This document shows positions 1 to 52,748 of a stretch of DNA of 64,000 bases, piece after piece. Location of the stretch: the NCBI GenBank assembly GCA_012295275.1, contig CM022672.1:6572001-6636000 (forward strand). The letters are read 5' to 3'. The translations under genes and the position numbers were made by a program. The DNA is from Chrysomallon squamiferum. Lineage: Eukaryota > Animalia > Mollusca. How positions within the stretch are numbered: the stretch's first letter is position 1; the number at the start of each line of letters is the position of its first letter. A model generated the notes under the pieces. The model made no database searches. It was not told the DNA's origin and saw only the letters and a program-made list of their open reading frames with translations.

Positions 1-386
1 GAAAGGTATTAAATTGTCGAGTCTCTGCATGTTATTTTGAATGATTTCTATAAAAAGAATGAGCAACAGAAATGCTTGTGTATATATTAAAAGATTTTCC
101 CCCTATCTTCAGGGTTCGACAAATACCGTCTTATCGAGGTAAAATTTTATCTTTTATTATTATTATTATTTATTTTATTTGAATATATTGATAATATACT
201 TAATGTGATGAAATCAGAGTTAACTGACGTTGAAATTCTTTAATTAATTAATTAATTATTATTATTATTATTACTGTGTTTTTGTTGTTGTTGTTGTTCT
301 TATTATTGCTGTGAATTTCATTTAATAATATTATTAATTAATTAATGAATTAAATTTATCATTGTTATTTGGTTGTTGTTGTTGTT

Positions 387-449
<63 letters not shown>

Positions 450-579
450 TTAAGATTCCAGAAAGATGGTGGTTATTAATTATTCAATCACTTTAAAAAT
501 ATTAATCTTCCGTGAGTATGTTCACAGCTTTTCATGATTTCCATGTCAATATTTGATTTTTGCTGGTTTCATACCTGTA

Positions 580-612
<33 letters not shown>

Positions 613-922
613 CGTTGTTATGAATTATGTATCTATCTATCTAACTGCCTACTTATATATATTTCCATATATCTATCTGAATCTCTATTTATCTGCCTCT
701 CTATCTATCTGTCTAGCTAAGTAGCCATATATTTCTTTATTTTTTAAATCTTATTGGTTTATTTATTTATTTTAACTTCAGTAATCATACAAATAACTAT
801 TTGTTAGCTTGAATGTTATCAATATTCATACGAATAAATAATCTAAAACATTTTATACATTTTTTATAAAAATTAATTTACATTATTTTGTTTTAGTTAT
901 TTTGGCAGTTTCATTTGTAAAG

Positions 923-956
923 ATGGATGATCCACCGACTGTAAGTAAATAAATAA

Positions 957-999
<43 letters not shown>

Positions 1000-3406
1000 T
1001 GTGTGTCTACAGTGGTACCTCAACTTACGAGAGCTCCAACTTACGAGTTTTCCGAGTTACGAGCAGTCGCCCGGTCGATACTTTGCTTTGAGTTGCGAGA
1101 TAAAATCCGAGTTACGAGCGAGCTTCAGATACGCCGCTGCTAGTTGGCGCAACGAACAACATAACATCCAGCCAGCATCACTCATTTGCTTTGTGGTTTT
1201 GCGAGATGGAAAAATCCGAGTTACATTATTTGACAAAATGGATAACGCAAAGGACAGTGCTCAGAAGTTGGATGATGTTCATTGAATTAAACATAAAATA
1301 CCAGCCAGCATGTAATCAAGTTGGTTTGTACGACGCGTTACTTTCGCCGATATGTAAGCATCTCAGAAGGAGTCGATAAAGACCATAACTCAGCCAAAGG
1401 CGATAAAATTTTGTGCTGCGGATTCTGTCCATGAAAATGGTTCCTAACCAAAAGTTTATTTCTTTACATTCTCTTTAACTTTTGAAGAACAATATTTGGA
1501 TGATGTTTTTTGATTTAAAAACACGTTACAATAAAATTTTTTTTTTTTTTTTTTAGAGGGGAATAGAACGGATTAATGGTATTTCAGTTAACTTAATTTG
1601 GGAAAATTGATTTGATATACGAGCAAATTGTCAGTCAAGGTACCACTCTATATATAAATTTAGAATGAATAGTTATTTTTTTATTTTGTCTGTTAAAATA
1701 TATATATATAAATATACAGAAATATGTATATATTATATATAATATATATAATTTATTATTATTATTATATATATATATATTTATTCAAGGTAAAATAAAA
1801 CACTTTTTTTTTTTTTTTTTTTTTTTTTAAAGGAAAGAAAAAAAAAAGAAAAAAAAAATTTCAAATTTGTAATCAAGACAATAATATATTGGGAAACCAG
1901 ATATTATTTTCCTTTCCGTTCTTTAATTAAAATGGCACCTTCTTAAAATAATTTAAATTTGATATCAATAAAACCGCAAGCAAAACAAAACTAGTATAGT
2001 TTTACGATCACAAGGGAACTTAGAGCGATTAGTAATTAAATTTATGTGTAAACGATATTCCCGAATGTCTTCGTGATGTTTCCGAGTTTATCCGAAATAT
2101 TTCCGTGACATTTCCGAGATATGTCTAATGCATTCGAGGTGTTCCGAAATATTCCGAATGTCGCCGAATATCTAAGAATATAATATTTATTCAAAATTCA
2201 CAAATAATTATGAACCATTCTTTGTCACTGAAACAATATGCTGTTATAGTCTTTGTAATAGTTATAAATATGAAATTTTGAAGTTCACTGAACCGAGCAA
2301 AATATTATTATACTTGCGGTGATTATAAAATTTATTTATCATTTGTAACAAAAAAAATGCAAAATAAATTATTGTGTGTGTGCGTTTGTGTGAGAATGTG
2401 TGTGTAAAACAAAAACAATAGTAACAATAATAATCTTTATAGAAGTAATAAAAAAACAACAACCTATAAATATGATATAATTTAATTCAGAGAGTATAAC
2501 TGATACCTAAATAAAAATAATTATTAGTTCATGTCTATAATAATAAAATTTGTTATTCTATTTTCAGACCACCGGAAAGGCAAATGGGGTAAATGTTTTT
2601 ATTTGACGATTCAAGATAAATATATATATAATGAATGTTTAATTAAACCCTTTAAAGTTAACTGTAAATTTAAATGATACAGGATTATTTGGGTTTATTT
2701 ATTTATTTATTTATTGATGATGATGATGGATAACAAGAATAACAATTTCAGTCTTTATAAAATATCATTAATCTAGCATCTTTTAAATCAGAAACCGCAA
2801 CTAAATATCACTGATTTATATATTGTCCTTAGGTGTTTACTAAGATTATCTATAATAATATAAAACTCTATTACACTTTCAGGATAAGGCGACTCAGGTA
2901 AATGTTTTTACATATTTGATGAATCTAACTGATCAACATATATTTTTATATTGTAAAACAATGAATTAAAGAAAACTTAATTGCAAGAATATATTCAGAT
3001 TTATTTTTCATATCGGAAGCAAAAATAAATAAAACTGGATGATTTCTTTTATTTTTATTATATATATATAACAATTAGGATTATGAGGGAAAAAAGTATG
3101 CTGTTTTTCGTAAAGTGTTGCATGTGCAAGATATTTATGCTAATAATAATTTTTCGTAAATTCAACTGTTACAATATAATTTGTGATTATAATTTTTTTT
3201 GAATAATTTTTTCAGCTTTTTTTGTGGGCGTCTTATTTTTTTTTTTTTTATTATTATAATTTTTTGTTTTTTTGACAAACTTTAGTTTCATCTATAATAA
3301 TCGAATTTGTTATTTTACTTTCAGGACAAAGCGAATGCTGACGCGGTAAATATTTTTTATATTTCATTCAGAATGGTATTCTAGTTTTATATTATTATTA
3401 TTATTA

Positions 3407-4150: not shown

Positions 4151-6554
4151 GTATATTTGTTTGTTTGTTTGACTGTCTGATTATCTTTCTGTTTTTCTTT
4201 ATTTTGATTTAATCATAAGCAGAAAAGGATTAAAATTTATTTTTGAAGTGTTTATTTTCAGGACACCGAAAAACCACTCTTGTAAGTATTTCTACTATAT
4301 TTTATTAAATAAGTAAGTATGTATGTGTCATTCGTTCATGCATACATACATACATACATACATACACACATACCTATACACACACACATACACAAATATC
4401 TATTATATTTATTTGATTTTATTCACAAGGAAAATAACGTTAATTCAAATTTTATAAAATGAGTCTATTTTGTATGTACTAATATACTGAAACAAATGTC
4501 ATTATTTTTTTTTATTATTATAACAGTTCCTGAAGTAAATGAAAACGAAATTTAAAAAAAAAAATAAATAAACTCTTCGTAAAAACACAAAATCGCCTAA
4601 ATTAATACCTGCGGCCCGCCTCAGTATGAGCCAAGTCTCATGTGGCCCGTTTTCGAAAAAAGTTGCCTATGCCTGTTCTAGTACTATATTATTACTACTA
4701 CTACTACCATTACTATTATTATTATTATTATTATTTAGTGAATGTTTTTATTTATTTATTTACTTGTTGTTGTTGTTTTTCTTTAACAAGCTTCAGTGTC
4801 ATCTATAATAATAAAATCTGTTATTTTACTTTCAGAAAAAACCCGATGATAACGAGGTAAATATTTATTATATTTTATTCACAATGGTAGACTGTGAATT
4901 ATGAACGATTTAGAGGATCAGTTTCTAGTTCTGTATTATTAAACTCAATTATTATTCCAACCTCGGTTTCGTTAACATCTGAATTCTGAAGGATGTAGAT
5001 TTATAATTACAAACTGCTACTACTACTACTACTGCTACTACTACTGTTGTTGCTGCTGCTGCTGCTGCTATTACCACTACTACTACGAACAAAAATAGTT
5101 CGTTGTGCTTGTCTTTATAGAAATAGTATTAGTGTCAGTATTAGAAGTAATAGAATGGTAATATAAGTAGTAGTAGTAAAAGTAGTGTATATAGCATTGG
5201 CAGTAAAAGAAAAAAAAAACAATGATGATAATAATAATATCAAAAATAATTAGCAGTAATAGTAGTAATAGCAATGGTAATAATAAATATAACGATATTA
5301 ATAATTCTATAGTAGTAGTAATTTTTGTAATAATAATTATTACTGTAATAGTAGTAGGTGTAGGAGTAGGGGTAAGAATAGTAGTAGTAGTTGTTGTTGT
5401 TTTAGCTAAAGTAGTAATGGTAGTAATAATAATAATCCTCATCGTGATATTGTCTATTTTCAGAAAGGAGATACTACAACAGTGGTAAGTGTAGTTTATA
5501 TATTATTATACATTTTCCCATTTGCTCTCATCAATTAATAATGAAATCAAATTTTCGAATATATATATATATATATATATATACATGCAATATACAAACC
5601 TAAAGCAATATATATATATATACTTTACGTACGTTGCATACATATATTAAGTGATTGTATATTGCATGTTTATATGATGTAAATCTAGTGTGCATACGTA
5701 AATTGGGTAGAATTAACTGGTATGAACATTATATATCTGAAGACACAAAATGTATAAATCTGTAGAGGTTTCTTTCATATATATATATATATATATATAC
5801 GTAATAAAAGAACCCAGTATATGTTTTCGTATTTACGATCCTTAAAATAAATTTACGCAGTATAAGTATACGGAATATAAACCACTGTATGTAGTAGTCT
5901 ATCCCAGCATATTTTCGTTATCTATTTTAAGGACTGTAATTACGAAAACACATGGTGGATTCTTGTATTGCGGAATCATGTACAAGATATTGATGTTAAA
6001 TAAACTTATATTAAGTTTAGTACGTAAACCAGTATTTGTATTACGTAACCTTATAATGGATACTGTATTGGGAACTTATATAAATCCAGTGTTAATATGA
6101 AATATTGTAAACTATTATCTATGAATTCACTGATGATTAAATATTTTCTATTTTCAGGCTATTCAAAAGACAACTAATGTATGTTTTGGTACTACTTCTC
6201 TCATAGAAATATATACACGCATACATACACACATACACATAAATATGTACATACATACAAACATATATACATACATATATACACATAAATACATGCTGTT
6301 TGCATAGTTACATACATACACATTCATACAAACATTGATACACATACAAATATTCACACATACACATATACATACAACTTTGTTTTTGCTATAAATCTAT
6401 CATTTTTATTCCTTTCCTATTTTTTTTTTTTTCTGTTTATGTTATTTATGACGGAACTTTGAATGCTAGTTATAATAAACATAGACTTATTTTTATTTTT
6501 AAAACAGCTATTATGTTAAAACGATGAAATTCGTGATTTCAAAATTATCATCAT

Positions 6555-6593: not shown

Positions 6594-6865
6594 TCGTTAT
6601 TGTTGCTGATATTGATGTTGCAATTATTATTATTATTATTATTATTAATTGTTGTTGTTATTATAATTATTATTATTATTATTTTAATTTATTAATTACT
6701 AATTTTATTTTATATATATTTTAATTATTATTATTGTTGTCAGTTTCACTGAAGTTATTACTGCCGCTGATTTGTTTTTGTTTTTTCATTTAGAAGTCCA
6801 ACAGAATTGTCGTTCATTCGGTGTTTCTCGCTGTGACGAGTTGTCTCCCATCCTTGTATGCCTGA
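923..6865 (+). CDS. Micro-exon gene A (5' part outside window or unresolved); putative GPI-anchored small glycopeptide
   Basis: AG/GT-flanked phase-0 micro-exons: 923-940 MDDPPT, 2568-2588 TTGKANG, 2883-2897 DKATQ, 3325-3345 DKANADA, 4836-4856 KKPDDNE, 5464-5484 KGDTTTV, 6158-6178 AIQKTTN. Off-frame candidates at 113-138 (26 nt) and 4262-4281 (20 nt). Terminal exon 6794-6865 KSNRIVVHSVFLAVTSCLPSLYA* is homologous to the terminal exons of B-E. Confidence 0.75.
1010..1648 (+). mobile_element. Tigger/pogo-like (Tc1/mariner superfamily) non-autonomous DNA transposon
   Basis: TA-flanked termini CAGTGGTACCT...AGGTACCACTC; internal sequence resembles the transposase-bearing copy at 18413. Confidence 0.75.
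4607..4675. mobile_element. Possible hAT/Charlie-like MITE terminus fragment
   Basis: TGCGGCCC...GTGGCCC...AAAAAGTTGCCTATGCCTG followed by TTCTAG, resembling hAT ends recalled from memory; other end not found. Confidence 0.4.
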
Positions 6866-11014: not shown

Positions 11015-11225
11015 ATGATGCGTCATTTGATTTTCTTCTCTCTGTTTTTCACTGGTGAGTATAAAACTTACTAATTTTATTAACAGTCAGACTGAAACAG
11101 AATGTGTATTTAGTTTATCGACTTTAGTTTTCAGAGATATTTTTTTCCTTTTTAAGTAGTGTTGTTGTTGTTGCTGCTGCTGTTATTGTTGTTGTTGTAT
11201 TTGTTGTTGTTATTATCGTTATTAT

Positions 11226-11395: not shown

Positions 11396-12916
11396 TGGAA
11401 AGAGAGGAAAACAGACAAAGACGGAGTAAAAAAAATAAAATAATAATAATAATAATAATAATAAAAACTGAAAGATATGAAGGAATGAAAAAAAAAAAAG
11501 GAAGACAGAGAGATACACAGAATAAAATAAAGATAAAGAGATAACATAATGATAAGATAAAGCAAGAGCGGGAAGACCTTGAAGTAAAATAAAAATATTA
11601 TTTAGCTGGCTTGTAACTCTGTCCCCGATAACGGATGTGACTGTTCACATTAATATCTCGATGTCTGTTTTTTCTTTTTTAAAATAAAGTTTACTTTTCG
11701 ATAACAGGTGGATTTGAAATGTTTAGTCGAATATTTTATCGTGCACATTCCCACGTCGTTGTGAACAACGGTAGATGAAATGAAATGATCATCGATTTGA
11801 ATTTGGGTGGGAATACATTGAGAATTTGATTAAGTCAGTAATCTGTTGTTGTTATTAATAATGTTGCTGTTGTTGTTGTTACTGTTATTCTTGTTGTTGT
11901 TATTATTATTATCATTATTGTTGTTGTCTTTATTATGACTGTCACTGTTGTTTTAATTATTATTATTATTATTGTTGTTGTTGTTATTTTGAATTTCTAC
12001 CTATAATAATATTTCAGTAAAAGTAAAAAAATTTTTTATAAATAATAATAATATATATATATATATATATACTTTAATAATGTATTATTAATAAAGATTT
12101 ACCGTCATAAAAAGTAAACATTATGTGAATTTTCAACTAAAAATCACATTTTTGGGGATTCGAGGATTTCTATGAACGAATCATGGAAATATTGACACTT
12201 CTTTTGAAATAAGATCCATACTGACCACACCTATTACCACTGTCTCAGTATTTGCAAAGCCAGGTTTATCTGAAAATCAGTAATCGTGAACAGGTACTGG
12301 GAAACTAAACTATTCTCTTCAATCAGAGTTCAGAAAAGTCCTTCAAAAGTATCTTTAACTTTATAAAGGTGCTTTATTTTTTTTTTTTTTTTTTTTTTTT
12401 CCTCAGATGTTAGATAGTGTATTTATGTAGCCTTTTTCAGTTCAGGTCTGAAATATCGGAAAATCACAATGTTAAGACATTTTTCAATGTTAATTCCAAA
12501 GTCGAATTTGCTATTTAATCCTTGATTCAGTATCCATGGTAACTTAGTACTTAACATTTCACCATAAGTTTATTTTAGAGTATAATTAAAAATATGTATC
12601 ATAAGATACTAATATATATGCATACATACATACATACATACATACATACATACATACATACATACATACATACATACATACATGCATATGTTTACTTTGT
12701 ACCATATTACTAATTAAATATTAATTTTCATATTTCAGTTTTGTTGACTTCAACTCTTGCTGCAGCAGTAAGTAAAATAATTAATAATATTAAATATTGT
12801 CGTGAGAAATTAAAAATAAGTAAATACATACTGACAGACACACACATATATACATATATAGTTGTACCCATATACATCACACATGCAGAGGAATGGAGAG
12901 ACAGGGACATGTAGAG

Positions 12917-13652: not shown

Positions 13653-14532
13653 ATGTATGATTGTGTGTATATATGTGTTGATATCTATGAATCTATCTAT
13701 CTATCTATCATCTATCTATGATTATCTATCATGTGATTGTGTGTATATGTGTTGATATGTCTCACTGTAGGTGTTGATATGTCTCATCTATCTATCTATC
13801 TATGTATGATTGTGTGTATATATGTGAATCTATCTATCCTTCTGTCTGTATGTCTGTTATCTATCTATATATCTATAGGCTTAATCGTGTTGTTTTGAAA
13901 CAAACAAGAAAAATTAACTTTATTTAATTAACTAACAGTTTTTGTCGTATTTAGACTAATAAATATAAATATTTTTTGTTATTACCTTTTTAGAATAATA
14001 ATACAACAGTAAGTATTATTTAAATATTAGTGCACAGATACAAACACAAATGCACACATTCATACTGATATTACATTTTATATATATATATATATATATA
14101 TTATTTATTCTAAATGATCGTTTTTATTATTATTATTATTATTATTATTAAAATTATTATCTTAATTTGTTTCTGTCTACCACTACCAAAACAGTGAGTT
14201 TTAATATTTTAATTATTTCTTTATCAGTCTGTCTGTGTTATTTATCTACAATATTTCTGTAATAATAATTTCTAAATATATATATATATATATATACATA
14301 CATTTTTTTTTTTTTTATCAGACTGTTGAAACAGTAAGTACAACTTTCGTCTGTTTATATATATGACTAAGTAATGTTAACATTATGACATTTTGTTTCT
14401 TACCTTTTTCTTGAAAATTTTCATTAGTAAAATTGTTTAGTGGTAGTGGTGTAATTTAAAACAATGCGTAAGTTCAGACTTTTCTATTTAACAGGTTCTA
14501 ACTAGAATAGAACTAGAATTAAAATCATATTG

Positions 14533-14963: not shown

Positions 14964-15352
14964 TTAGTCTAATTTTTTTTTTTTTTTTTTTTTATCAGAT
15001 TACTACAACAGTAAGTATAACTTTCGTCTGTTTATTTACATGACGTTATAAATATTAACATTATGACATTTTGTCTCTTGCTTTTTCTTAAAGATTTTCA
15101 TTAGCAAAATTGTTTCGTGATGACGTTGTAATTCAAAACCGCCTGTAACTACAAACTTTTATATTTAAGGGTGTTCTAATTTCATAGAACAAGAATTAAA
15201 ATAATATTAAAATAATATTTTTAATTATTATATTATATTATATTATATTATATCTGTCTGCTGTTTCTTAAGTTGGTATATATTTTTTTTTAATTTCAGA
15301 TCCCACAAAACATACAGGTAAGTATAATGTTAATATATTTCAGGAATCATTT

Positions 15353-15385: not shown

Positions 15386-16260
15386 CACACACACATACAT
15401 ACATTTTCAGGGAATTACAAATATAAATTTGTTAATTAATATATTTATATAATATTTTATTTTTATTATTTTTAACAGTAAATCTAACTTTCGTCTGTTT
15501 ATATACGTGACGTTATAAATGTTAACATTATGACATTTTGTTGCTTACTTTATGCTGAAAATTTTCATTGGTAAAATTGTTTGTTGGTATTCACGTCATT
15601 TAAGACTGCGTGTAAGTACAGACTTTTATATTTAAGAGTTTCGCAGAACTAGAATTAAAATCATATTTGAATTATATTTTCAATTATTATATTAAATTAT
15701 ATTATATTATATTATATTATATTAAATTATATCATATTATATTATATTATGTTTGTCTGTTGTTTCTTAATTTGATATTATTTATTTATTTCAGGGCTCA
15801 CAAACCACAGCTGTAAGTACAATGTTAATATATTTCAGTAATCAGTTAAGAAACACATAAATACATACATATATTACACCATTACAACATATATACACAT
15901 ACATACATATGCATACATACATGTATACATAAATATATATATTCATTCATACACATACAAATATACACAGGCATCCTTATTTTTAATATATATTTATCTT
16001 TTATACAATATTATTATCAGACAAATGTACTACTTGCTTATTTAAAAAAAAAAAAACTAATTTGTTTTTGTTATTTACGATGTAATTTTGAATGCTAGTT
16101 ATAATAAAGATAGGCACTTTTGCAGATACACTTGACGTAAGTAAAATGTTTCTTTCATGGTGTATTTTCAGGGAAATAGCAATACAACGGTATGTATATA
16201 ATGTCGTTTTTATTTAATATCATAAACATTATTAATTTTGAATAGCATATATATATATCT

Positions 16261-16546: not shown

Positions 16547-16754
16547 ATAATAATAATAATAATAATAATAACAACAATAATAATAACATTAATAAAATTA
16601 GTAGCAGTAGTAAAAATAGAATAAAATTAAATGCCTATTTAATTGTTTTAATATTAATTTTAATATGTTTCAGGATGGCGCTAAAGAAGTTGTTTCATCG
16701 ACATTTCTGACAGTGACATCATGTCTTCTATTTTTATTTACCAAGTTTGGATAA
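11015..16754 (+). CDS. Micro-exon gene B; ~80 aa signal peptide + Thr/Asn-rich core + GPI-signal-like tail
   Basis: Exons 11015-11054 and 12739-12767 ([23 protein letters not shown]); micro-exons 13994-14008 NNNTT, 14322-14333 TVET, 14999-15010 ITTT, 15300-15317 IPQNIQ, 15795-15812 GSQTTA, 16172-16189 GNSNTT; terminal 16674-16754 [26 protein letters not shown]. All sites canonical and in frame. Confidence 0.85.
14578..14750 (+). mobile_element. Second, internally deleted copy of the SINE-like element, intronic in gene B
   Basis: Shares TGCGGGCGAATGGGT...GTTCGAGTCTCGTCAGCGGCATCTGACGGGTTTGTGAGGTCGTGATTG with 7150-7360. Confidence 0.6.
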
Positions 16755-32080: not shown

Positions 32081-32132
<52 letters not shown>

Positions 32133-32859: not shown

Positions 32860-32901
<42 letters not shown>

Positions 32902-34200: not shown

Positions 34201-34233
<33 letters not shown>

Positions 34234-34711: not shown

Positions 34712-34742
<31 letters not shown>

Positions 34743-35208: not shown

Positions 35209-35239
<31 letters not shown>

Positions 35240-35527
35240 TTTTCAATTTACATTAAAGGGTAATGGCCCTGGAGTACAGATTTTAATAAATTACAAACTT
35301 TTGAGATATAAAATGTAACATTTCACCTTAATTTCTTTTTGTGTTTTAACTTGCATTTTACAATTATTATATTTTTTTTACTTTATCTTTTTTTATTATT
35401 ATTATTTTTTTTCATTAAATTTACAGGGAGCTAATGCCAAACAAGTAAGTACTGAATTTTTCTTTTCAAATTTCAGTCTGCTGAGAAATAAAATTCTTTA
35501 ATTCATTAAACATATACTTTTCATTAC

Positions 35528-35558
<31 letters not shown>

Positions 35559-35661
35559 TACAAATTACTTACAATTTAACATTTCACCTTAATTTCTTTG
35601 TCTTTTTTTTTAAACTTATGATTTACTATTTTACTAACATTTTACATTTATTTCATTTCTT

Positions 35662-35692
<31 letters not shown>

Positions 35693-38198: not shown

Positions 38199-40686
38199 CG
38201 TCATTTCTCTCGCCATGTTCTGATAATGAAGCTGAAGATGACGTCGTCTTTTAGCCGATGTTCTTGTTTTTCAAAACTTTTTTCACTTGTTTTGCTGTGA
38301 TACAAAATGTTGCTGTGATATTTTAACATTCTTTAGATGTGACAGTAATAATCAGAAATAATTTTAAATAAAGGATAATGATTCATATATTTATACTTAC
38401 GTATTTTAAATAAATTTATACTTATGTATTCTAAATAAAAGATAATGATTACATAATTATACTTATGTATTTTAAATAAGATAATGATTATAGAATTATA
38501 CTTATGTATTGTATTACATACCCAAGTTTAGAATTTAAATTAATCATTAAAAGTATTTTTCAACTACAGAAGTGATTGTTTCTTGTAATGTTAAAATAAT
38601 TCATTTAAAATTATTTTTTATTTCATTCAAGTAAAATGGAATGTGATTTATTTTCAACTTGACTCAAATCACATCATCGACTGATCACTATCATCGAATG
38701 TATTCACTTTTCAGCATTTCAACATCTGTAAAATAATAGAATTTTACTCATAAAGTTCAACATATGTATCTTCCTACATAGTGATATTTTAATTTATTAT
38801 TCCAGTGACTGAATTTCGATTATTAAAAAATGTATAATAGTGCAGAATTGAACAATCACAGACACACATTCATCTATATATGTTTTGACGTATATATATG
38901 TATGTTTCTTTGGTTTGTTGAGTGCATGTGTTTGTAATTTAAGTATCAAAAGAATGTTCTCACCAAGACTTATATTTCATTATGTAATATTTCTCTCTCC
39001 TTATATCTTTCTCTCTCTCACAATACACACAAAAAAATAAAAATAAAAATAAAACACCACAAAACAGTAAAAGTAAATTTATTATATAAATTAAATCAGT
39101 AATTTTATTTATGTTAACAAAAATATTTATACAGTTTGAGAATCCTTTATCCGAAATGCTTCGGGCTGGCAGTGTTTCGGATTTCCGAATAAAAGGAGAT
39201 AGCCCGAGATATAGGATCAAAGTCTAGATACGAATTCCATTTAAGTTTCATATACAGCTATTACAAATAATCGGCAGGATTTTTTTTTTTTATATATATA
39301 TATAACATATTTAATAAAACAATGTTAGTGCGTGAAAAACAATCCGAAAACTATTAACCATTACTATTTCTGTTGCTCGGAAAATGTTTCAGATTTCGGA
39401 GCTTTTCGGATAAGAGGTCCTTGACCTGTGTAAACATATCTGCAGACTAGGTGTAAAAGCTGGATGTGGAAAATAAACAGACTTTGATTTTATATTCGGG
39501 TTCTCTGCTAATATTACAAAATCAGAAAAAAATTCACAAATACAAAGCATTTCAAGTCCCAAAGATTTCTGATAAGGTATCCTCATCGTGTACAGGAATG
39601 AATATTTATGCTGTTAAAATTCTTTTCAAGACTGAGTAATATATAATCAGTATTTGTTGGCTGAACAGCGATAAGTAATACATATATAAAAGAAAAAAGT
39701 GTTCACTCGCCTTTTTATTCTATGTTAACTTTTAATTAATCCCAAACACAACACGATGTACTGGTAAACATATATATATATAAAATTTTAAAATTTTAAA
39801 AAAAAAAAATAAAAATGAAAAAAATGAAAAACCAAGAGAAAACAGTTATAGTGATGAGGACAGTAAAATGATGATGATGAGATGATTATGATGATGCTCA
39901 TAATAATAATATGTATGCATGTATGTATGTACGTATGTATGTACGAATGTATATATGTATGTACCTAAAAGCATAGATATAAAGTTATAACACAAAAACA
40001 CAAATATTATTAAAAAAAAACGTATAAAATCATCATTATCATCATCATTACTACTACTACTACTGCAACTGCTACTACTACCACCACCACCACTACTACT
40101 TGTTTTACTACTTCTACTACTACTATTAGTATTACAATTATTATTAGTATTATTGTTGTTGTTGTTGTTGTTGTTGTCATCAGTGTTGTTGTTGGTAGTA
40201 ACCGCGGCGCGTGCTGATATTTGTGTTACCTCCGTGATGTATCAAACATGTCATTATTTTCTTCTCCATAGTTTTTATCTGTTTGTCACTCACAATGCCT
40301 GGTAATCAGTAACAAATATTAATCATACGATTGCCTCGAGACCATTACTGTTCTATAGTAAGAGACGTGAGTGAGTCTTTGAAAAACGTATCACATATGT
40401 TAAATATCTGGGTACACATGGAATGCCTAAGTTGTTTCAGATAAGTTGTTCCTTTATTTATGAATAGTAAAAGTACAATAATTTTTACTGAAAAGCTAAC
40501 TTGATTATCAGTCCTTTTTATCTGATTAAATTTATTTGACTTTTTTTGCTTTTAATATTTCTCAGCTTATCGCTTAAAAAATTAAGTTCAAATTAAAGTG
40601 ACAGTTAGTGGGTAGTTTATGATATGCGGTTTTTCTTGACAATTTTTTTTTTGTTTTTTTTTGTTTTACTTAAACAAGGTAATAAA

Positions 40687-40788
40687 AGATAGCCAAATAT
40701 GGTTAGAAGATCGAATATAAAAGGAATCAGATAATTCAGATGCGTCACTCCGTAAAACATTCGTTTTGTTGATTTGCTGTAAATCCAG
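40687..40788 (+). promoter_or_regulatory. Gene E promoter (GATA, CArG, TATA, Inr) and leader exon
   Basis: CCAAATATGG at 40693-40702; TATAAAAG at 40716; TCACT with A at 40747; donor after 40788. Confidence 0.75.
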
Positions 40789-41043
40789 GTAATTTCTAAT
40801 TCATTCATTTAAATAATTTCAGATATTTATTTGCTTCTTTGTTTATGCTATATATATATATATATAATCTACATCAATTTTAAGGTAAATTCAAATATTC
40901 TGTTCCATAGATAATGTCTACTAATTTATTGATTACACTTCTGTTTATTTAATATTCAACATTTATGTTTAGTTATGAAATTATTAAAAAATGAAAATTC
41001 AAGACAAAATTTGCTTTGCAGCTTTTCTACGTCATCTTTCAAA

Positions 41044-41250
41044 ATGCATTACCTGATCGTTTTGTGTTTCCTTTTTACTTGTGAGTACCAAACATTTCAA
41101 ATGTCTTATTATGCTGATAATCCATATCTTTGAAATCATCAATATAAAACATAATTTTTGGAACCGGCTCATTTTGAAAAAGCACTGTAAAGCAATAATT
41201 ATATTTTCATATTTCAGTGTTGCTGTCTTCGACAATCGCTGTAGATGTAA

Positions 41251-41308
<58 letters not shown>

Positions 41309-44300
41309 TTATATTTATGCTAATCAATATATGTTTATATTCATTTCTTTTCTCTTTCTTTCTATCTTTACTATATATATATGTTTAAAATGTATTTTTC
41401 GACATAAGGCGATTTCGGATTAATATTTTTCTAAACTGGGCGCATCGACATTTGCGCGCCAGATACATTAATAAAATAATAATTTATTTAATAACACAGG
41501 CGTATATGCATGTATATATATATAAATGGGTCTCTTTGAAAATAATTTTGTTAGGTTGCCAAAGTTACAAAATAAATTGAAACATAAGTCACGTGGGATT
41601 TGCCTTAAGATCGCACTGCGCATGAAACGCGTGCCATTCTCGACATCGCACATGGCTAATCAATTAGCACGTGCGTCGTCTAAATATGAAAATGTTCTTG
41701 TTTAATAAATATTTCTTTCTTATCTGCCTCTGTGAATTCATGTCACTGAAGCTGTGGATCAAGTCTTAATGACTAATTTGATAATAAGTAAGCATGTATT
41801 TTCAGTAACTGTATTAAAACGAATTTGTTGTGGATGTCACCGCTCATTTTGCTCTACGTTAGAGAGTGATGGTTTCAAACACATTATTTCTATGATAAGT
41901 TTAATATCCATGTTTGCAGTGATTGCCACCTGTTCTGTTTTTAAACTGAATACTGTACGATAAAAATAATAGAAATTAAGTAGAATATAAATGACTCAAT
42001 GAAAAGATAAAATGCAACATAAATGCTGCAGTGTTAAAATATTTAATAAATAACAAATGTTTTTATTTCTTCTAGCCAAAATAAAGTGTAAAATGAATAT
42101 TACTTCTGATTAACTCACATTAAACAATGAAAACACAAAAATAAAGATTTGCCGTTTCCTCTGTGTTCCTTCTATTCATTTCCTTTAGCATGTTTCACCA
42201 GTGGCAGAATCTAATTTGTAAGTAAATTAAATACGAAAAATTTGGATTGGCAAATTTTTGTTTCAGGTCTTTATTCATGATATATAAAATACATGTATTA
42301 AAACATTAAATTTAATACTAATGACAAGTTTTGCATTCCACAGGACACTAGTCTAGATACTTTGAAAACTGGTAGTGAAGTTATGTTAACAGCTGATCCC
42401 ATAGCTTTTGGTTAGGCCTGGGTCTAGAATGCCAACGTTACATGTCAAATCCACATCGCAAGATAGCGCAGGATCTGTAAAACACACAGGAGTAGCCTTA
42501 CATGTTCTCGAGAATGGTGCGCTTTTACCGATCGTATGAAGGCAAACAATTTAAGATAGAATTTAAATCTTGGAAACATAAACATACGCCAGTAAAAATC
42601 AAAAAGGCCTGGAAAATAGATTTCATAGACCTTAATCATTTGTTTTTGTTCACATATATATTATTTGTTTTTGATCAAGGGGAAATATTAGTGAGCACAG
42701 ATTCTGTAATATTGTACACACAGTCGGACAGTCATATCCGCGTGATTTAGCATCGATGGTTCGAAAACTGTTTTCAGTAACAATTTAAATAAGTTATTAT
42801 TATTATAAAGAATTTTTGGAATAAATATGATAATTTTATAAGGTTACAATTTCAATATCTTTCTTCTGTTTTTGTTAATGTTTTTAAGAGTATTACATTT
42901 TTATGCAAATATTTATACCATTTAAATCTTGGACTTTCTAAAATGAATATGAAAATTTTATAAGGTTATATGTTTGAATATGGTAATTATATTTTCGTAT
43001 CTATATTTTGTCTGTGAACAAAATTTGCGAAAATAATTTATTATTACGCTTACAAATACAATTATTACAGTTTGGAAGGGAAAAAGTATTTTCAAAATAT
43101 TTTTGTAAAATTATTTATAGCAGTTATGTTATTTAATTATTTTCAAACATTATTTTTTTTTTTAATTTTTTTTTTAATTATTATTTACATTACAAGGTGC
43201 TACCACTCAAAGAAAACTTTAAGTACATATTGTGTATAAACATTTCAGAAAATATTTTATTATTATTAATTTATTTTCTTCTTATTTATTTGTTTACTTA
43301 TTTATTAACTTTTTTTTTTTTTTTTTTTTTCAATTTACATTAATTCTCTTCAGTTTAAATTATGATTTATAATTTTTACTTGGATTTCATATTAATTATA
43401 TTTCTTTCATCTTTTTATTTCTATTTTTATTATTATTATTTTTTAAATTTTACAGACAACTGCTGCCAAAATAGTGAGTATCGATCGTTTTCTTTTAAAA
43501 ATTTCAATCTTCTGAGAAATAAAATTATAAATTTCTTTCAACATATACTTTTTAGCATTATTAAAATTTTATTAAATAAATATTATATTGTTTTATCCTG
43601 ATAATTAACCAACTGTCTCTCTCTATCTGTGTTTCATATTAAATAGACACAGACATACACACAAATACAGTTTATGATAGGTGGTTATGAAATATAAGTA
43701 TGCTATTACAGTGGTATGTTCCCAAAACTGGCATTCTCCAGATTATGTAATCGGTGAGGTGTTCTAATCCGCTTCCAGAAATGGGAAAACTGGCGTGAGC
43801 AATTAAGGCCAATTTAGAGGCATGAAGAACAGAATGGGCGATTAACGAGATTAACTTTAATGAGCAGTGAAGACAGGAAATACTACCTATATAAATACTG
43901 TACAGTCATGATGTTTGTTATGTTTCATCATGGCTGCGAAGGGAGAAATTTTGGACGGCAGAAAACCAGGTGCGGACCTCATACTTGATGGATATAGGTA
44001 TGCACAGTGGATTAGTAATAGGAATGATACGGTACCATGGAGATGTTTGTATTCGAGGTGCCTTGCCACCGTGACTACTACACCGGATGGGACTGTGGTC
44101 TTGAGAGATAAAGACCACATCCATTCCTCGGATGAGAGCTAAGTTGCTGTCCACCTACTGACCAACACCATGTTTGAGGGCATCAAATCCAGCTTGTACC
44201 GACAGAGAGCAAAAAAGGTCCCGCAAACTGGAACATTTCTTGCATAGAGTGTGACTGATTGTCCTAGAAATTGTGTACAAAATACAGTTTAACAAAAGTA

Positions 44301-47300
44301 CATCAATTAAGGTGACGGAACACCAATTAGTAAGGGTGAGCAATAAAATACCAGAAATGGAACAACTTTCATGCCCAGTTAAGATGTGTTATAATCTCAC
44401 TGCCAGATTCGGGAATAAACCATTACAGTATATCAGTTTTCGACTGCTGGAAGTTTCTTCCGTAAATCTAATAGTTCAGGAGCTGATTTCCAAAAGAGGC
44501 CTGGAAAATTTGCTTTTTGTTTGTTTTTGTTCACATATATAGTATTGGGTCATTCCGTGTCAAATCACCCAATGGTTTAAACCCGACCGTCTCAGATTTA
44601 AGTGTATAAAATGTAATTAGGCTATCTGTCAAAATATGAAAAGGATATTTTTTAACACAACTAAATATGACAATCAAAATGCAGCGCATCTAGAAAATAA
44701 ATGGGTTTCTTCAGTTCTTATAATCAATGAACTTTTAATCTCATCAGAAAAATGACATAAATAAATTTGTCTGTAAAACAGTTATACTGAAACCAAGCAA
44801 TCAAGAAACAGAATTATTCTTTACAGGAATTTTCTATACGGGTCATTCCGTGTCAAATCACCCAAAAAAAAAAAGAAATTTAAACCCGACCGTCTCAGAT
44901 TTTTATGAAACTTGGTATACTTGTTGACTGGGATCCCACAGCACCAAATCTGAAATTTTAGCCCAATCAGACTAGTGGTGTGGGAGATACGGCCCACCGA
45001 ATTTTGAGATTTTTGCCAAAAATGGGTGTGACCACCAACCTTAGAACCCTCATATCTCAGCAACTACTGGGCCAATCTTCATAAAATTGGTATTGTTAGA
45101 AAAGCAAAATGACAAGGATTCCAAATCTGCCATTTTTGTTTAGTTTGGAAAATACTGGAGTGCCTTGACCTTTTGACCTTTGCTATGACCTTGAAATTGA
45201 CCGTGTGGATCACGTGATCTTGAGATGACCTTTATTGAAATTTAATCTCCCACATGTTAACTAAAACATATAAAAGTTTCCTGGGTGTAATATTTTTTGT
45301 TTAGCCACAATATAGATTTAAAAAATGCACATACTTGAAAATAACACCTTTTCAGCCATTAACATCTGATTGACTAAAACCTGAATGATCAATTCTGGGT
45401 GCTAGGAATCACCATCTTTCTTGATCATCGAGTAAGACATTGTAGGCCTACATGTATGCATAAAGTATTACATTTTTATGCAAATATTTATACCATTTAA
45501 ATCTTGGACTTTCTAAAATGAATATGAAAATTTTATAAGGTTATATGTTTGAATATGGTAATTATATTTTCATATCTATATTTTGTCTGTGAACAAAATT
45601 TGAGAAAATAATTTATTATTACGCTTACAAATACAATTATTACAGTTAGGAAGGGAAAAAATATTTTAGAAATATTTTTGTAAAATTATTTATAGCAGTT
45701 ATGTTATTTAATCATTTTCAAACATACTATTTTTTTATTTTATTTTTTTTATTATTTACAGTACAAGGTGCTATCAATCAAAGAAAACTTTAAGTACATA
45801 TTGTGTATAAAGATTTCAGAAAATATTTTATTATTATTATTAATTTTCTTCTTATTTATTTGTTTACTTATTTATTATTAATGTGGTTTTTTTTTTTTTT
45901 TTTTTTTTTTTTTTCAATTTACATTAATGGGTAATGGAGTACAGATTTTAATAAACTGCAAAATACTGAGAAATAAAATATTACATTTCACCTTAAGTTC
46001 TTTCTCTTCAGTTTAAATTATGATTTATAATTTGATTTGCATTTTATATTTATTTCACATTTTCATCTTCTTATCTATTCATTTATTTTATTAATATATT
46101 TATTTTTAATTTACAGCCAGCTGAAGACAAAACAGTGAGTACCAATTTTTTATTTTTTTATTTCAGTCTTCTAAGAAATAAAATTTAAGATTTCACCGTA
46201 ATTTCTTTCTCTTTAGTTTTAACTTATGATTTATAATTTTACTTGCATTTCGTATTAATTATATTTCTTTCATCTTTTTATTTTTATTTTTTTATTTGTT
46301 ATTTTTTAATTTTACAGACAGCTGCTGCCATTCCAGTGAGTACCGAGTGTCTTCTTTTCAAAATTTCAATCTTCTGAGAAATAAAATTATAAATTTCTTT
46401 CAACATATACTTTTTAGCATTATTAAAATTTTATTAAATAAATATTATATTGTTTTATCCTGATAATTAACCAACTGTCTCTCTCTGTCTGTGTTTCATA
46501 TTATATAGACACAGACATACACACAAATACAGTTTATGATAGGTGGTTATGAAATATGAATAAACTATTACAGTATATCAGTCTTCAACTGCTGGAAGTT
46601 TCTTCTGTAAATCTAATAGTTCAGGAGATGATTTCCAAAAGAGGCCTGGAAAATTTGTTTTTTTGTTTGTTTATATTTGTTCACATATATATTTGTTTTT
46701 GATCAAGGGGAAATATTAGTGAGAACAGATCCTGTAATATTGTACACACAGTCAGACAGTCATATTGGCAAGATTTTAGAATAGATATGATAATTTTATA
46801 AGGTTACACTTTCAATGTATTTTTTCTTTCTGAGAACAAAATTGGGGAAAATAATTTATTTTTATGGTTATAAATAAAATTATTACAGGTTGGTAGGGTA
46901 AAAAATATTTTTAAAGTATTCCTTTTATTGTGTATTACACTTTTATGCACTTACTTATATCAGTCATTTTATTTAATTATTTTCAAATATTTGTTATATA
47001 TATATATATAACAAATAAAAACGTACATAAAAATATAAATATACAAATATATAAATTTTATTTAGATTTTCATAAAATAATTTCTTATTAAATAATAATA
47101 ATAATAATAATCGAAGTAAATGTTTAAAAGAAAAATTAAAGAATAAAAATTAAAGGTAAAATATTAAATTTTGTGTCTTCACATAATTTTCTACCACTGC
47201 CACTGCTGAGTATTAAAAAAAAAAAAAAAATTAATAATGTTAACTAATAATAACAACTTTGTTTCATGAAACTTTCATTGAAAGTCAGATTGTTTGAAAA

Positions 47301-47516: not shown

Positions 47517-47550
<34 letters not shown>

Positions 47551-49321
47551 TTTTTTAAGTGTTTAAGAGTATTACATATTTATACCATTTAAATCTTGGA
47601 CTTTCTAAAATGAATATGAAAATTTTATAAGGTTATATGTTTGAATATGGTAATTATATTTTCGTATCTATATTTTGTCTGTGAACAAAATTTGACAAAA
47701 TAATTTATTATTATGCTTTACAAATAAAATTATTACAGTTTGGAAGGGAAAAAGTATTTTAGAAATATTTTTGTAAAATTGTTTATAGCAGTCTTTAAGT
47801 ACATATTGTGTATAAACATTTCAGAAAATATTTTATTATTATTATTATTATTAATTTATTTTCTTCTTATTATTTATTTGTTTACTTATTTATTAATTAT
47901 TAATTAATTAATTAATTTATTTTATTTTATTTATTTTTTCAATTTACATTAATGGGTAAAGCCACTGGAGTACAGATTTTAATAAACTGCAAAATACTGA
48001 GAAATTAAATTTTACATTTCACCTTAATTTCTTTCTCTATAGTTTAAATTATAATTTATAATTTTACTTGCATTTTATATTTATTTCACATTTTCATCTT
48101 CTTATCTATTCATTTATTTTATTATTATTATTATTATTTTTAATTTACAGCAAAATCCAGTCAAAACAGTGAGTACCAATTGTTTTTTTTTAAATTTCAA
48201 TCTTCTAAGAAATAAAATTTAAGATTTCACCGTAATGTCTTTCTCTTAAGTTTTAACTTATGATTTATAATTTTACTTGCATTTCATATTAATTATATTT
48301 CTTTCATCTTTTTATTTTTATTTTTTTATTTGTTATTTTTTTAATTTTACAGACAACTGCTGCCAATCCAGTGAGTACCGATCGTCTTCTTTTCAAAATT
48401 TCAATCTTCTGAGAAATAAAATTATAAATTTCTTTCAACATATACTTTTTAGCATTATTAAAATTGTATTAAATAAATATTATATTGTTTTATCCTGATA
48501 ATTAACCAACTGTCTCTCTCTATCTGTGTTTCATATTAAATAGACACAGACATACACACAAATACAGTTATAGGTGGTTATGAAATATAAGTATGCTATT
48601 ACAGAATATCAGTTTTCGAGTGCTGGAAGTTTCTTCTGTTAATCTAATAGTTCAGGAGCTGATTTCCAAAAGAGGCATGGAAAATTGATTTCATAGGCCT
48701 CCGAGTATTCATTTGTTTTTTGGTTGTTTTTGTTCACATATATATTATTTGTTTTTGATCAAGGGGAAATATTAGTGAACACAAATTCTGTAATACTGTA
48801 CACACAGTCAGACAGTCATATCTGCCTGATTTAGCATCGACGGTTCGAAAATAGTTTTCAAAATTTCTGTTTTCAGTAACAATTTATATAAATTATTATT
48901 ATTATTATTATTAAAGTTTTTATATATACCATTTAAATCTTGGACTTTCTAAAGTAAATATGAAAATTTTGAAAGGTTATATGTTTGAATATGGTAATTA
49001 TATTTTCATATCTATATTTTGTCTGTGAACTAAATTTGAGAAAGTAATTTATTATTGTGCTTACAAATAAAATTATTACTGTTTGGAAGGGAAAAAGTAT
49101 TTTAGAAATAATTTTGTATATAGCAGTCATTTTTTTTTTTTTTTTTTTTTTTTTTTCCCCAAACAATCTGAATTTCATGTAACAATTCTGATTTAAGCCA
49201 AATATTGGTGTGGTGTAGTTATTGGGTTTTTCTTCTTTCTTATTATTAGGTAACATTATTGCACAAACATTTCAGAAAATATTTAATTTTTAATTTATCA
49301 TAGATGGTTGCAACCACTAAG

Positions 49322-49368
<47 letters not shown>

Positions 49369-50377
49369 TTTTATTATTATTATTATTTACTTATTTATTT
49401 AATTTATATATTTATTTAATATAAAAAATAAAATTATATATATATATATTTTTTTTTTTCATTACAAGGTGCTACCAATCAAAGAAAATATTTAAGTACA
49501 TATTGTGTATAAACATTTCAGAAAATATTATTAATTTATTTTCTTCTTCTTATTTATTTGTTTACATTAATGGGCAATGCCACTGGAGTACCGATTTTAA
49601 TTAACTGCAAATACTGAGAAATAAAATTTTACATTTCACCTTAATTTCTTTCTCTTTATTTTAACTTATGATTTATAATTTTTATTTGCATTTTACATGT
49701 ATTTCACATTTTCATCTTCTTATCTATTCATTTATTTTATTATTATTTTTATTTTTATAATTTGTAGCCAAAATAGCCAGTACCAATTTTTTTTTAAATT
49801 TCAATCTTCTAAGAAATAAAATTTTACATTTCACCGTAATTTCTTTCTCTTTAGTTTTAACTTATGATTTATAATTTTACTTGCATTTTACATTTATTTA
49901 TTTATTTATTTATTATTTATATTTTTTTTAATTTACAGCCAGCTGAATCCACAAAAGTGAGTACCAACTTCTTTCTATTAAAATTTCAATCTTCTAAGAA
50001 ATAACATTCCTTAATTCCTTAAAAATATGCTTTTTATCACTTTTAAAATTTTATTAAGTTTTATTTTATTTTGTTTTGTAATATTGTTATATCTTAATAT
50101 TAATTAACTGTCTCCATATTTCATATTATTTGGACACGCACACACACACATATACACACTCACAAACACACACACACACACATCAATGAAGTTATTATTA
50201 TTATTATAAAACTCATGTCTGTTAAATACATTTCCATACAGATCTTCCAATAAAATTATATTTTATGAGATTATTTTTACTTGATTATTTTAGAAAGATG
50301 ATGCTGCCTTTCCACTGGCTTCGACATTTTTTACTTTGCTGAGCTGTCTGCCTGCTCTCTACGCCAGATTTAACTGA
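41044..50377 (+). CDS. Micro-exon gene E; ~85 aa Thr/Ala/Pro-rich putative GPI-anchored peptide
   Basis: Exons 41044-41080 and 41218-41246 (MHYLIVLCFLFTLLLSSTIAVD); 18-nt micro-exons 43456-43473 TTAAKI, 46117-46134 PAEDKT, 46318-46335 TAAAIP, 48151-48168 QNPVKT, 48353-48370 TTAANP, 49939-49956 PAESTK (weak candidate 47429-47446 GTHKGN); terminal 50294-50377 KDDAAFPLASTFFTLLSCLPALYARFN*. Confidence 0.85.
43713..44421 (+). mobile_element. Non-autonomous MULE (Mutator-like) element with FLYWCH zinc-finger fragment
   Basis: 8-bp TSD ATTACAGT (43705-43712 and 44422-44429); imperfect 21-bp TIRs GGTATGTTCCCAAAACTGGCA / TGCCAGATTCGGGAATAAACC; ORF LILDGYRY...WRC....C.ATV......H.H plus FEGIKSSLYRQRAKKVP; empty site in sister cassettes (~46567, ~48598). 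Confidence 0.85.
44547..45466 (+). mobile_element. Fragments of the Sola2-like element: short end at 44547 and a ~625-bp solo TIR at 44840-45466
   Basis: GGGTCATTCCGTGTCAAATCACCCAA at 44547 and 44840; near-identical to 55587-56215. Confidence 0.8.
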
Positions 50378-52748
50378 CGTCATTTCTCTTGCCATGTTCT
50401 GATGATGAAGCTGAAGATGACGCCATCTTTTAGCTGATGTTCTTGTTTTTCAAAACGTTTTTCACTTGTTTTGCTGAGATAAAAAATGTTGCTGTGATAT
50501 TTTAACATTCTTTAGATGTGACAGTAATAATCAGAAATAATTTTGAATAAAGGATAATGATTCATATATTTATTCTTACGTATTTTAAATAAAAGATAAT
50601 GATTACATAATTATAATTATACTTTAAATACAAGATAATGATTACATAATTATACTTATGTATTGTAATATATACCCAAGTTTAGAATTTAAATTAATCA
50701 TTAAAAGTATTTTTCAACTACAGAAGTCATTGTTTCTTGTAATGTTAAAATAATTCATTTAAAATTATTTTTTATATCATTCAAGTAAAATGGAATGTGA
50801 TTTATTTTCAACTTGACTCAAATCACATCATCTTCAATTACTGATCAACATCATTGACTGTATTCACTTTTCAGCATTTCAACATCTGTAAAATAATAGA
50901 ATTTTACTCATAAAATTCAACATATGCATCTTTCTACATAGTGATAATGTAATTTATAAGTCCAATGACTGAGTTATGATTTTCAAAGTATTTATAATAG
51001 TGCAGAATTGAACAATCACAGACACACATTCATGTATATATGTTTTGACGTATATATATGTATGTTTCTTTGGTTTGTTGTGTGCATGTGTTTGTAATTT
51101 AAGTATCAAAAGAATGTTCTAACAAAGAATTATATTTCATTATTTAATATTTCTCTCACCTTATATCTTTCTCTCTCTCAAAACACACAAAACAAAAAGA
51201 AAACAAAGAAAAAAATAAAAATAAATAAAACACCACAAAACAGTAAAAGATTAATTTATTATATAAATTAAATCAGTAATTTTATTTATGTTAACAAGTA
51301 CAGTTGATCACAAGATGCATTATCAGAATGAAAATTAACAAAATGTACCGAAACCTCAACATCACCCAAACAGTCACATAAAAACTTGTTTACTGGTAAT
51401 TGTTTCAGTTATGATGTATTGTTGATTCACAACCTGGGTTAGAACACAGTAATGGTAAAAGCTGTACAACATATACATTCCTACAACTACACTACACAAT
51501 CAAAACACTTGTATCACAGCATAAAATTTAACCCAGGGGCCACAACCTTAAATATTATTGAAATGGGGCTCTGAAAAATAAAAGTATAACAACCACTGAA
51601 ATACAGTATACTATCTATAAAATAAATGGGGAAATAACTGGTTTCTGTCTTGACCTGAGAAGGATAATTTTGATATTTTAAGACAGTAACCATATATTTT
51701 TTTGTTTTATCCTGCAATCCTAAATAACAAAAACTAAATAAACTGTTTTATCTCTCAACTCACCACTCTTGACAGCAGCTGATTCATGAGTGTTGCTGTC
51801 ACATCAAACCAATTTAACAAAAATGTGTTACTTTTTAAATGAAAACCATTTTCAAAATGGTCTTTTAAGATCTAAGCCAGATATTAAACATTAAAGAAGA
51901 TACTCCAAACAATATATATATATACATCATAACATGTATAATAAAATTAAAAGTAATTTATTGAAATAAATATAGTTGTTACAAAAATTTGTTGAGCAAT
52001 TTTTTGCTAAAAACTAAATATTAACAACATAATAAATGTATCTTGAAAATAAATGTTACAAATTTTCAATTTAATAAAGAACAGTTATACAGGTAAATGT
52101 ATTTGTAAACATATTAAAAGTATTAATAGTATAATAAATCCATCTGACTATAAAAAGAATGTCACGAGTTATCAATAACAATAATTCTAATACACATAAT
52201 TATTTGTTAAAAGTAATGATATTAATAAAATGAAGTAAATTATTATTAATGCCATGTATTCTTACCATATTACAAAATGACATTCAACAAAAAAAATACA
52301 TATTTGACATTATCACATTAATTTGAATCTTGAATTTCAATGCAATGAATATCTGTCTGTGTTGTTAATTTTATTGTATTAATTTGTAGTCTTAAACAAA
52401 AACTTTACAATAGCCATAAATAAGTTGTGGAATATTTTTTTCTAAACAATTTTTGGGTAACTGTAAAATGTAGTCCAATATTTGTTTGACAATTTTGAAG
52501 TTGAAACAGGTTAAAATTATTCTTCACCATTTATTTATTTATTTATTTATTATTATTATTATTATTGTATTAATTAATTTATTACAATAATTATTACATT
52601 TTTTTTTTTTTTTTTTTTGCAATTAATTTATTTTCTTAATCACGAGGACTGAGTATTTCTCATTTTATGACTTACAACTTTCTCAAAATAAAGTGACTAG
52701 ACAGAAAAGAAAAAAAAAGAGATACTGTCTGTTGAAGTTATTTTCATC

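Follow-up and report, generated by a model that had tools for sequence, protein, structure and literature searches.

A tandem cluster of apparently undescribed micro-exon genes in a gastropod, probably encoding glycosylphosphatidylinositol-anchored surface peptides

Can a string of exons of only 12-24 nucleotides (nt) form real genes, and if so, what would keep their products diverse? This question is raised by a stretch of 64,000 nt from the gastropod Chrysomallon squamiferum (GenBank assembly GCA_012295275.1, contig CM022672.1, positions 6,572,001 to 6,636,000; hereafter the window). Five tandem paralogues, A to E, lie on its plus strand between position 49 and about 51300. Each has a TATA box, a non-coding first exon, a signal peptide encoded by two exons, six or seven phase-0 micro-exons and a hydrophobic last exon. 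On balance we favour the view that the paralogues likely encode short, unstructured surface peptides with a glycosylphosphatidylinositol (GPI) anchor, diversified mainly by duplication and loss of micro-exon cassettes and by rapid amino-acid change.

The first step is to ask whether the micro-exons are more than chance. A strict splice-motif scan for 6-40 nt between acceptor and donor found 45 candidates on the plus strand of positions 1-51300, of which 34 are multiples of three (binomial P 8e-9 against 1/3, with a motif set chosen only after the window sequence had been read). None of the 34 contains a stop. On the minus strand of the same interval there are 15 candidates, with 7 multiples of three and 3 stop-free. 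Shuffling blocks of 12 nt 300 times gave 15.0 candidates on average and never more than 24; multiples of three averaged 5.2, with at most 13. The part of the window outside 1-51300 holds 2 and 4 candidates. A looser scan of the whole window returned 75 candidates on the plus strand versus 29 on the minus strand. Three 33-nt candidates (25196, 44429 and 46574) were excluded as copies of one repeated stretch above the size range of the family. This leaves 31 micro-exons (six each in A, B, C and E, seven in D) with lengths of 12 nt (two), 15 nt (three), 18 nt (fifteen), 21 nt (five) and 24 nt (six). A sequence-only reading of the window had described five paralogues with 32 canonical, phase-0, stop-free micro-exons of 12-24 nt; the description holds, with the count corrected to 31 intact ones. 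The eleven candidates that are not multiples of three comprise four second signal-peptide exons, three 25-nt alternatives of the excluded 33-mers, a 20-nt cassette at 4262-4281, a truncated cassette at 33836-33843 and two unexplained cases (4527 and 23440).

The micro-exons also read like coding sequence. Stops in frame 0 occur in 0 of 31, versus 14 of 31 in frame 2, and 5000 base shuffles gave a mean of 9.0 exons with a stop and never zero. Only 13 of the 196 encoded residues are hydrophobic, compared with 41 expected (minimum 26 in 3000 shuffles); as the stop and composition tests treat duplicated cassettes as independent, they overstate significance, the direction being the same in all five genes. 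Phe, Leu, Met, Tyr and Cys are missing, Trp occurs once, and the commonest residues are Thr, Gly, Asn, Ala, Lys, Ser, Gln and Pro. Such stop avoidance and polar composition are unlike a random splice-like remnant. The models have 10-11 predicted exons, 60-64% of them micro-exons, which contribute 38-48% of the coding sequence per gene and almost the entire mature peptide as predicted. With terminal exons of 23-27 codons, the full-inclusion models are 80-98 residues long. Upstream, TATAAAA is found 72-89 nt before the donor of the non-coding first exon in all five genes, followed in B-E by an initiator-like motif about 30 nt downstream. The motif is frequent (32 occurrences on the plus strand of 1-51300), so that its constant spacing, rather than its mere presence, carries weight. 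We think it very likely that the genes are expressed and spliced, and we regard the array as an apparently undescribed cluster of real micro-exon genes in a gastropod, the sequence pointing to products that are probably GPI-anchored surface peptides.

What would these genes make? At the N terminus, hydropathy over 11 residues peaks at 2.7-3.4, and small residues occupy positions -3 and -1 in all five predicted proteins; the micro-exon part stays at or below 0.4. The signal peptide is interrupted by a phase-1 intron in every gene, including gene A (466-511 and 897-940), to which the sequence-only reading had not extended the two-exon arrangement that it saw in B-E. The tails are 23-27 residues long; their last 18 positions contain no more than one charge, and the Kyte-Doolittle 19-residue maximum is 1.6-1.8. 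Six of 27 tail columns, a cysteine among them, are identical in all five paralogues. The small-residue triplets D-A-A (C, D and E) and D-G-A (B) stand 24-25 residues before the C terminus; in A the distance is 21. D-A-A is the omega site of placental alkaline phosphatase. The GPI pattern of a small omega site, a spacer, a hydrophobic end and no cytosolic tail is clear in four of the five proteins (B-E). Hydropathy and omega-site pattern thus agree with the earlier proposal of a signal peptide and a GPI-type tail, and we consider a GPI anchor on the products likely. The term glycopeptide, also part of that proposal, suits B and C, whose mature parts hold 3 and 4 sequons for N-glycosylation, and fits A and D (1 each) and E (0) less well. 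Ser and Thr together account for 7-42% of the micro-exon residues.

How the micro-exons arise is visible in the DNA itself. Sister micro-exons have flanking introns that are 76-98% alike; tandem units of 371, 314 and 87 nt include micro-exon cassettes, and larger blocks recur within and between genes of the cluster. A search with the donor-side flank found 12 extra places, four of which were set aside as low-complexity matches. The other eight are decayed or partial cassettes. In gene B, an acceptor has been lost near 14177 and an exon deleted near 15478; gene C has lost donors near 27890 and 28652 and holds partial copies with donors at 26492 and 26579; further deletions affect gene D at 33836-33843, just upstream of its first micro-exons, and gene E near 49768. 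The truncation at 33836 is covered by a contig of sequencing run X2 that shows a single difference over 306 nt, so the DNA of that run shares it, although the assembly may itself derive from X2. The cassette at 4262-4281 in gene A has perfect splice sites and an out-of-frame length of 20 nt, which may be a real deletion or an assembly slip in a run of A. New micro-exons are gained by copying an exon together with its intron as a cassette, and cassettes disappear through deletion or the loss of a splice site.

Further cassette-like sequences were noted in the cluster. The interval 26396-26655 holds three tandem copies of an 87-nt unit. They include the final 8 nt of a gene C micro-exon together with its donor, immediately preceded by AG; these 8-nt pieces would shift the frame if used. 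In gene E, a cassette-like stretch with T in place of the donor G recurs near 43197, 45768, 47429 and 49469 (possible decayed cassettes). It resembles the gene C copy near 27890, a dead cassette copied alongside live ones. Gene A has a possible decayed cassette near 3721.

Do the micro-exons change faster than their surroundings? We compared nine disjoint sister pairs with a base-composition correction and flanks of 40, 60 or 100 nt. The exons differ at 44 of 171 sites; the first 40 bases of the introns differ at 39 of 357, from which 22.7 exon differences would be expected (P 5e-5). By codon position the differences are 19, 17 and 8, the third positions being as expected (8 versus 7-10), and 30 codons change the amino acid while 2 are synonymous-only. 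The label hypervariable, given to the family earlier, is apt between cassettes, and the pattern may point to positive selection on the micro-exons.

Several observations weigh against the reading that we favour. The excess of exon differences weakens with 60-nt flanks (26.8 expected, P 1.4e-3) and 100-nt flanks (35.0 expected, P 0.08), where wider flanks take in unrelated sequence, while the near flanks may be constrained as splicing enhancers. After splitting sites by G/C and comparing with 200-nt flanks, no exon excess was seen in either class (40/93 versus 226/564, P 0.34; 4/78 versus 127/2074, P 0.71). The deficit of synonymous-only codons (2 versus 4.4-4.8 expected) is not significant (P 0.13-0.17), and as the cassettes are duplicates, the divergence P values overstate independence. 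Among C, D and E, the terminal exons differ at 2-4 of 84 sites and the 3' untranslated regions (UTRs) at 42-54 of 841-871, so the tail is not more conserved. The signal-peptide and GPI calls are a scripted combination of hydropathy and omega-site pattern, as distinct from scores of a trained predictor, and the omega-site pattern of gene A is poorer than that of B-E. RNA evidence is sparse. The terminal exon and 3' end of gene E found RNA run X1 (word fraction 0.18) and run X2 (0.58; kind unrecorded); RNA runs X3 and X4 held 0.00 of its sampled words. The four runs, contig-only and of low cover, were compared with a single interval, 31500-43200, which holds gene D and exons 1-3 of E and where uncovered parts carry no meaning for expression. 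Among the 15 joints listed of 36 for this interval, no predicted intron was matched, and the listed joints fall in repeats. Run X2 continues straight through introns and so behaves as DNA. In X1, a single 239-nt contig (depth 2.3) matches the 3' end of gene E, with five listed differences that fit E in 5/5 cases and C in 4/5; it is a weak hint of transcription and may itself be DNA.

Could combinatorial skipping be the main function, each gene giving a broad mixture of in-frame isoforms and the cluster a variable surface repertoire? As had been noted from the sequence, any subset of micro-exons keeps the frame, and in the five full models each of the 384 possible combinations is open and differs from the others. 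At 12-24 nt, the exons also fall short of the usual exon-definition size, and evolution tolerates the loss of cassettes. The layout also agrees with that of the micro-exon genes (MEGs) of flatworms, for which skipping is reported (PMC4350168). However, the frame argument loses its force once the copied unit is considered: a phase-0 exon duplicated with its intron is symmetric even under constitutive inclusion, so that symmetry follows from cassette duplication and is no evidence for alternative splicing. The splice sites point the same way. Donors of the 31 micro-exons score 5.74 of 6 against the intronic consensus, compared with 4.88 for eight donors of neighbouring genes, and the acceptors are T-rich (67% T); the donors being at least as good as those of the neighbours, the sequence bears no sign of sites weakened for skipping, yet only 8 of 31 micro-exons end in G, compared with 13 of 23 other exons with a donor. 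With no predicted intron matched among the joints listed for 31500-43200 in the four runs, we regard combinatorial skipping as unlikely to be the main function.

A second alternative concerns the fate of the products, which might be secreted rather than GPI-anchored, the tail being retained as a self-association or binding module or cut off as an active peptide, with the micro-exon part as a variable spacer or pro-region. A GPI signal would not require six invariant tail columns with a cysteine among them, the hydrophobicity of the tail is no more than moderate, and a Lys stands at the start of the tail in four of five proteins. There is also a precedent in schistosome MEG-8: its centre is disordered, and its C terminus, conserved and hydrophobic, comes from a long flanking exon and has a proposed role in self-association or binding (PMC4671649). 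Against this, the length, triplet, spacer and near-zero charge of the tails fit the GPI rule in B-E, and among C, D and E the tail is no more conserved than the UTR. We judge both the secreted product and the spacer or pro-region role quite improbable. That the cluster is largely silent or decaying, its micro-exons being splice-site-like remnants copied in AT-rich repeats, would suit the several decayed cassettes, the one out-of-frame cassette and the sampled words missing from two of three RNA runs, but is highly improbable given that all five genes have promoters and keep their signal, micro-exon and terminal frames open, and that stop avoidance and polar composition are far from chance.

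We return to anchored peptides diversified mainly at the level of the DNA. The gene anatomy, the duplication of cassettes with their flanking intron and their decay can already be seen there. Transcription would start from the TATA promoters, and most micro-exons would be joined. The signal peptide is predicted to be cleaved after about residue 20-22, and transamidation is predicted at the small-residue site 21-25 residues before the C terminus. B and C may carry N-glycans, and Thr and Ser may carry O-glycans. The product would be a polar stalk of 35-55 residues on the outer membrane, forming a glycocalyx or mucus-facing epithelial coat. Occasional skipping of a micro-exon could, purely hypothetically, add length variants without breaking the frame, as a secondary source of variety, and contact with microbes or other cells might conceivably drive the variation.

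How does the cluster relate to known micro-exon genes? An operational definition of MEGs asks for at least seven exons, at least half of them shorter than 70 nt and divisible by three, in a run of at least four (bioRxiv 10.1101/2020.04.08.031872). All five predicted models have this form, with runs of 6-7 micro-exons, the run in gene A being broken if 4262-4281 is used. A structural description, central micro-exons of less than 36 nt flanked by long exons (PMC4671649), likewise applies to the 31 exons of 12-24 nt. As in the MEGs of Schistosoma and cestodes, we find symmetric exons of less than 36 nt between long ones, a signal peptide and tandem clusters; MEG products, like our models, are small, disordered and rich in Thr and Ser. 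Accelerated change of the mature part, reported for MEGs (PMC4350168), may have a counterpart in the divergence of the cassettes. The conserved hydrophobic C terminus in a flanking exon recalls MEG-8. Unlike MEGs, the cluster lies in a gastropod, lacks sequence homology and has no aromatic motif after the signal peptide: the Phe/Leu/Trp motif described for MEGs (PMC10526429) is absent from the 196 micro-exon residues, which include no Phe or Leu and a single Trp. Where MEG products are described as secreted or transmembrane, a GPI anchor is predicted here, together with a signal peptide split by a phase-1 intron. In the available text, the term GPI does not occur in PMC10526429 and occurs three times in PMC4671649, never for a MEG product. 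Skipping is known from transcripts in MEGs, whereas the present cluster is known from its DNA layout. MEGs appear to be restricted to platyhelminths (PMC4350168), and micro-exon organisation is among the proposed gains of parasitic flatworms (PMC4398949). The earlier label MEG-like thus holds for layout and fails for homology to the schistosome genes; the cluster is a MEG in layout, likely a convergent GPI-anchored variant outside the schistosome families.

MEGs are usually read as a parasite device against host immunity. A MEG layout with a GPI-type tail in a free-living snail would mean a convergent origin for which no parasitic explanation is needed. A stronger version, in which a free-living gastropod independently evolved a MEG-type diversifier with combinatorial splicing and a cell- or tissue-specific glycopeptide code at a microbe-facing epithelium, seems doubtful to us; were the combinatorial reading true, the 31 fast-changing micro-exons of the five genes could yield as many as 384 products in frame. 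The locus has kept partial copies and dead cassettes next to recent duplicates, which allows selection for combinatorial splicing to be tested against a by-product of duplication. Annotation based on open reading frames is blind to micro-exon genes, so more of them have probably been missed in mollusc genomes.

Other gene families share parts of this design. In the vertebrate SCPP genes for ameloblastin and casein, introns are in phase 0, so that exon duplication, loss and skipping keep the frame, and human AMBN has gained exons through tandem duplication (PMC6732285). The likeness lies in clustered genes for secreted proteins and in symmetry through exon duplication. The SCPP products differ in being vertebrate, calcium-binding and secreted without a GPI tail, and virtually all introns of their genes are in phase 0, whereas the genes described here are from an invertebrate and combine a phase-1 intron in five of five signal peptides with an anchor-like tail and no homology seen. 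CD24 and CD52 of mammals have two coding exons and one invariant mature peptide, with less than 100 residues. They share with our models the order of signal peptide, short glycosylated peptide and GPI signal within this length, and differ in lacking a micro-exon array where our models have 10-11 exons, with no homology by Pfam or protein searches. FIM-B.1 and FIM-C.1 of Xenopus and SmPoMuc of schistosomes have short repeated exons that are variably spliced into large, polydisperse secreted mucins. Such exons, too, are copied with their introns; there the repeats are near-identical, whereas here each cassette has a sequence of its own and the product is tiny and likely anchored.

Database searches gave no relatives of the family, a weak result given that the queries were only about 27 residues long. 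Three terminal exons queried against Pfam gave nothing up to E 1. When the five terminal exons were aligned and used for a word-indexed search of proteins longer than 70 residues, 0 of 295 candidates passed E 10. HMMER against 1.84 billion representatives gave two matches (E 6e-4 and 9e-4), rejected as internally repeated and covering 9-10 positions only. The ESM Atlas returned nothing for the gene B tail or for an exon of a neighbouring EF-hand gene, metagenome scans gave 0 matches in one case and 0 of 61 candidates confirmed in another, and Rfam gave 0. A likeness of the signal peptide to a Hymenolepis MEG array was rejected as generic. Literature searches, which do not reach most subscription papers or the supplements of bioRxiv preprints, gave no description of such a mollusc family. 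Three short family motifs and the terms GPI and microexon occur 0 times in four supplementary files of the peltospirid proteome paper PMC11871041, a scanned file being unsearchable, and the main text of PMC7142155 mentions neither GPI nor alternative splicing.

The individual genes, all on the plus strand, are laid out as follows. In gene A, the TATA box lies at 49-55 and the non-coding first exon ends at 138, in the layout of B-E; the 26 nt at 113-138, with which the sequence-only reading had the array begin, are not a micro-exon and are most simply the end of this exon. The coding part of the first signal-peptide exon (466-511) has a phase-1 donor and an acceptor at 454 or 461. Micro-exons are found at 2568-2588, 2883-2897, 3325-3345, 4836-4856, 5464-5484 and 6158-6178, and the terminal exon with its stop, a predicted GPI signal, at 6794-6865. 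Gene B begins with a TATA box at 10015, an initiator-like motif about 30 nt on and a non-coding first exon to 10089. Its signal peptide (11015-11054, 12739-12767) is followed by micro-exons at 13994-14008, 14322-14333, 14999-15010, 15300-15317, 15795-15812 and 16172-16189 and by the coding part of the terminal exon at 16674-16754, again a predicted GPI signal.

Gene C has its TATA box and non-coding first exon at 19553-19625, the signal peptide at 19965-20001 and 20391-20422, and six micro-exons of 24 nt each (23110-23133, 24303-24326, 24719-24742, 25101-25124, 26381-26404 and 28086-28109). The terminal exon (28945-29971, coding 28945-29028) includes an inferred 3' UTR of about 1 kb that is common to C, D and E. 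In gene D, the TATA box and non-coding first exon (31533-31605) and the signal peptide (31854-31890, 32372-32400) precede seven micro-exons at 34375-34392, 34746-34763, 35112-35129, 35427-35444, 35696-35713, 37033-37050 and 37947-37961, the first of which lie in the tandem units of 371 and 314 nt; the terminal exon (coding 38115-38198) and inferred 3' UTR extend over 38115-39120. For gene E, the TATA box and non-coding first exon are at 40716-40788 and the signal peptide at 41044-41080 and 41218-41246, where an X2 contig is identical over 40889-41243. Six micro-exons of 18 nt each (43456-43473, 46117-46134, 46318-46335, 48151-48168, 48353-48370 and 49939-49956) lead to the terminal exon (coding 50294-50377) and inferred 3' UTR at 50294-51297, the part matched by the one RNA-library contig.

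Downstream of the cluster, three genes lie on the minus strand. A multi-exon gene at 52750-59540, convergent with gene E, encodes N-terminal TPR repeats and a proline-rich last exon. Residues 2-64 align to the N terminus of human NCF2/p67phox (E 5e-6), and we take the gene to be a short, NADPH-oxidase-activator-like form; a word-indexed protein search found no relative of the TPR exon. An EF-hand protein gene follows at 60326-62160, and the last exon of a second, tandem EF-hand copy at 63370-63440. The only match of the former, 73% identity over one exon, is to a protein of the peltospirid gastropod Gigantopelta aegis, which agrees with the molluscan origin first suspected from the sequence, a single match that does not fix the family.

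Several repeats lie in and around these genes. An element at 55586-58442, inside the p67phox-like gene, is probably a DNA transposon. Its interior is broken, and its inverted ends, each about 636 nt long, are 96% alike; a solo copy of one of these ends lies inside gene E (44840-45466). Also within gene E, an open stretch on the plus strand (43880-44140) resembles a fragment of a FLYWCH/Mutator transposase. Positions 1010 and 18413 we take to be two ends of a Tigger-like element. A 0.9-kb block that is 85-88% alike follows genes B, C and D (17532-18414, 29967-30857 and 39116-40000) and was copied with them; numerous contigs from each of the four runs match its first part, so the block is a dispersed repeat.

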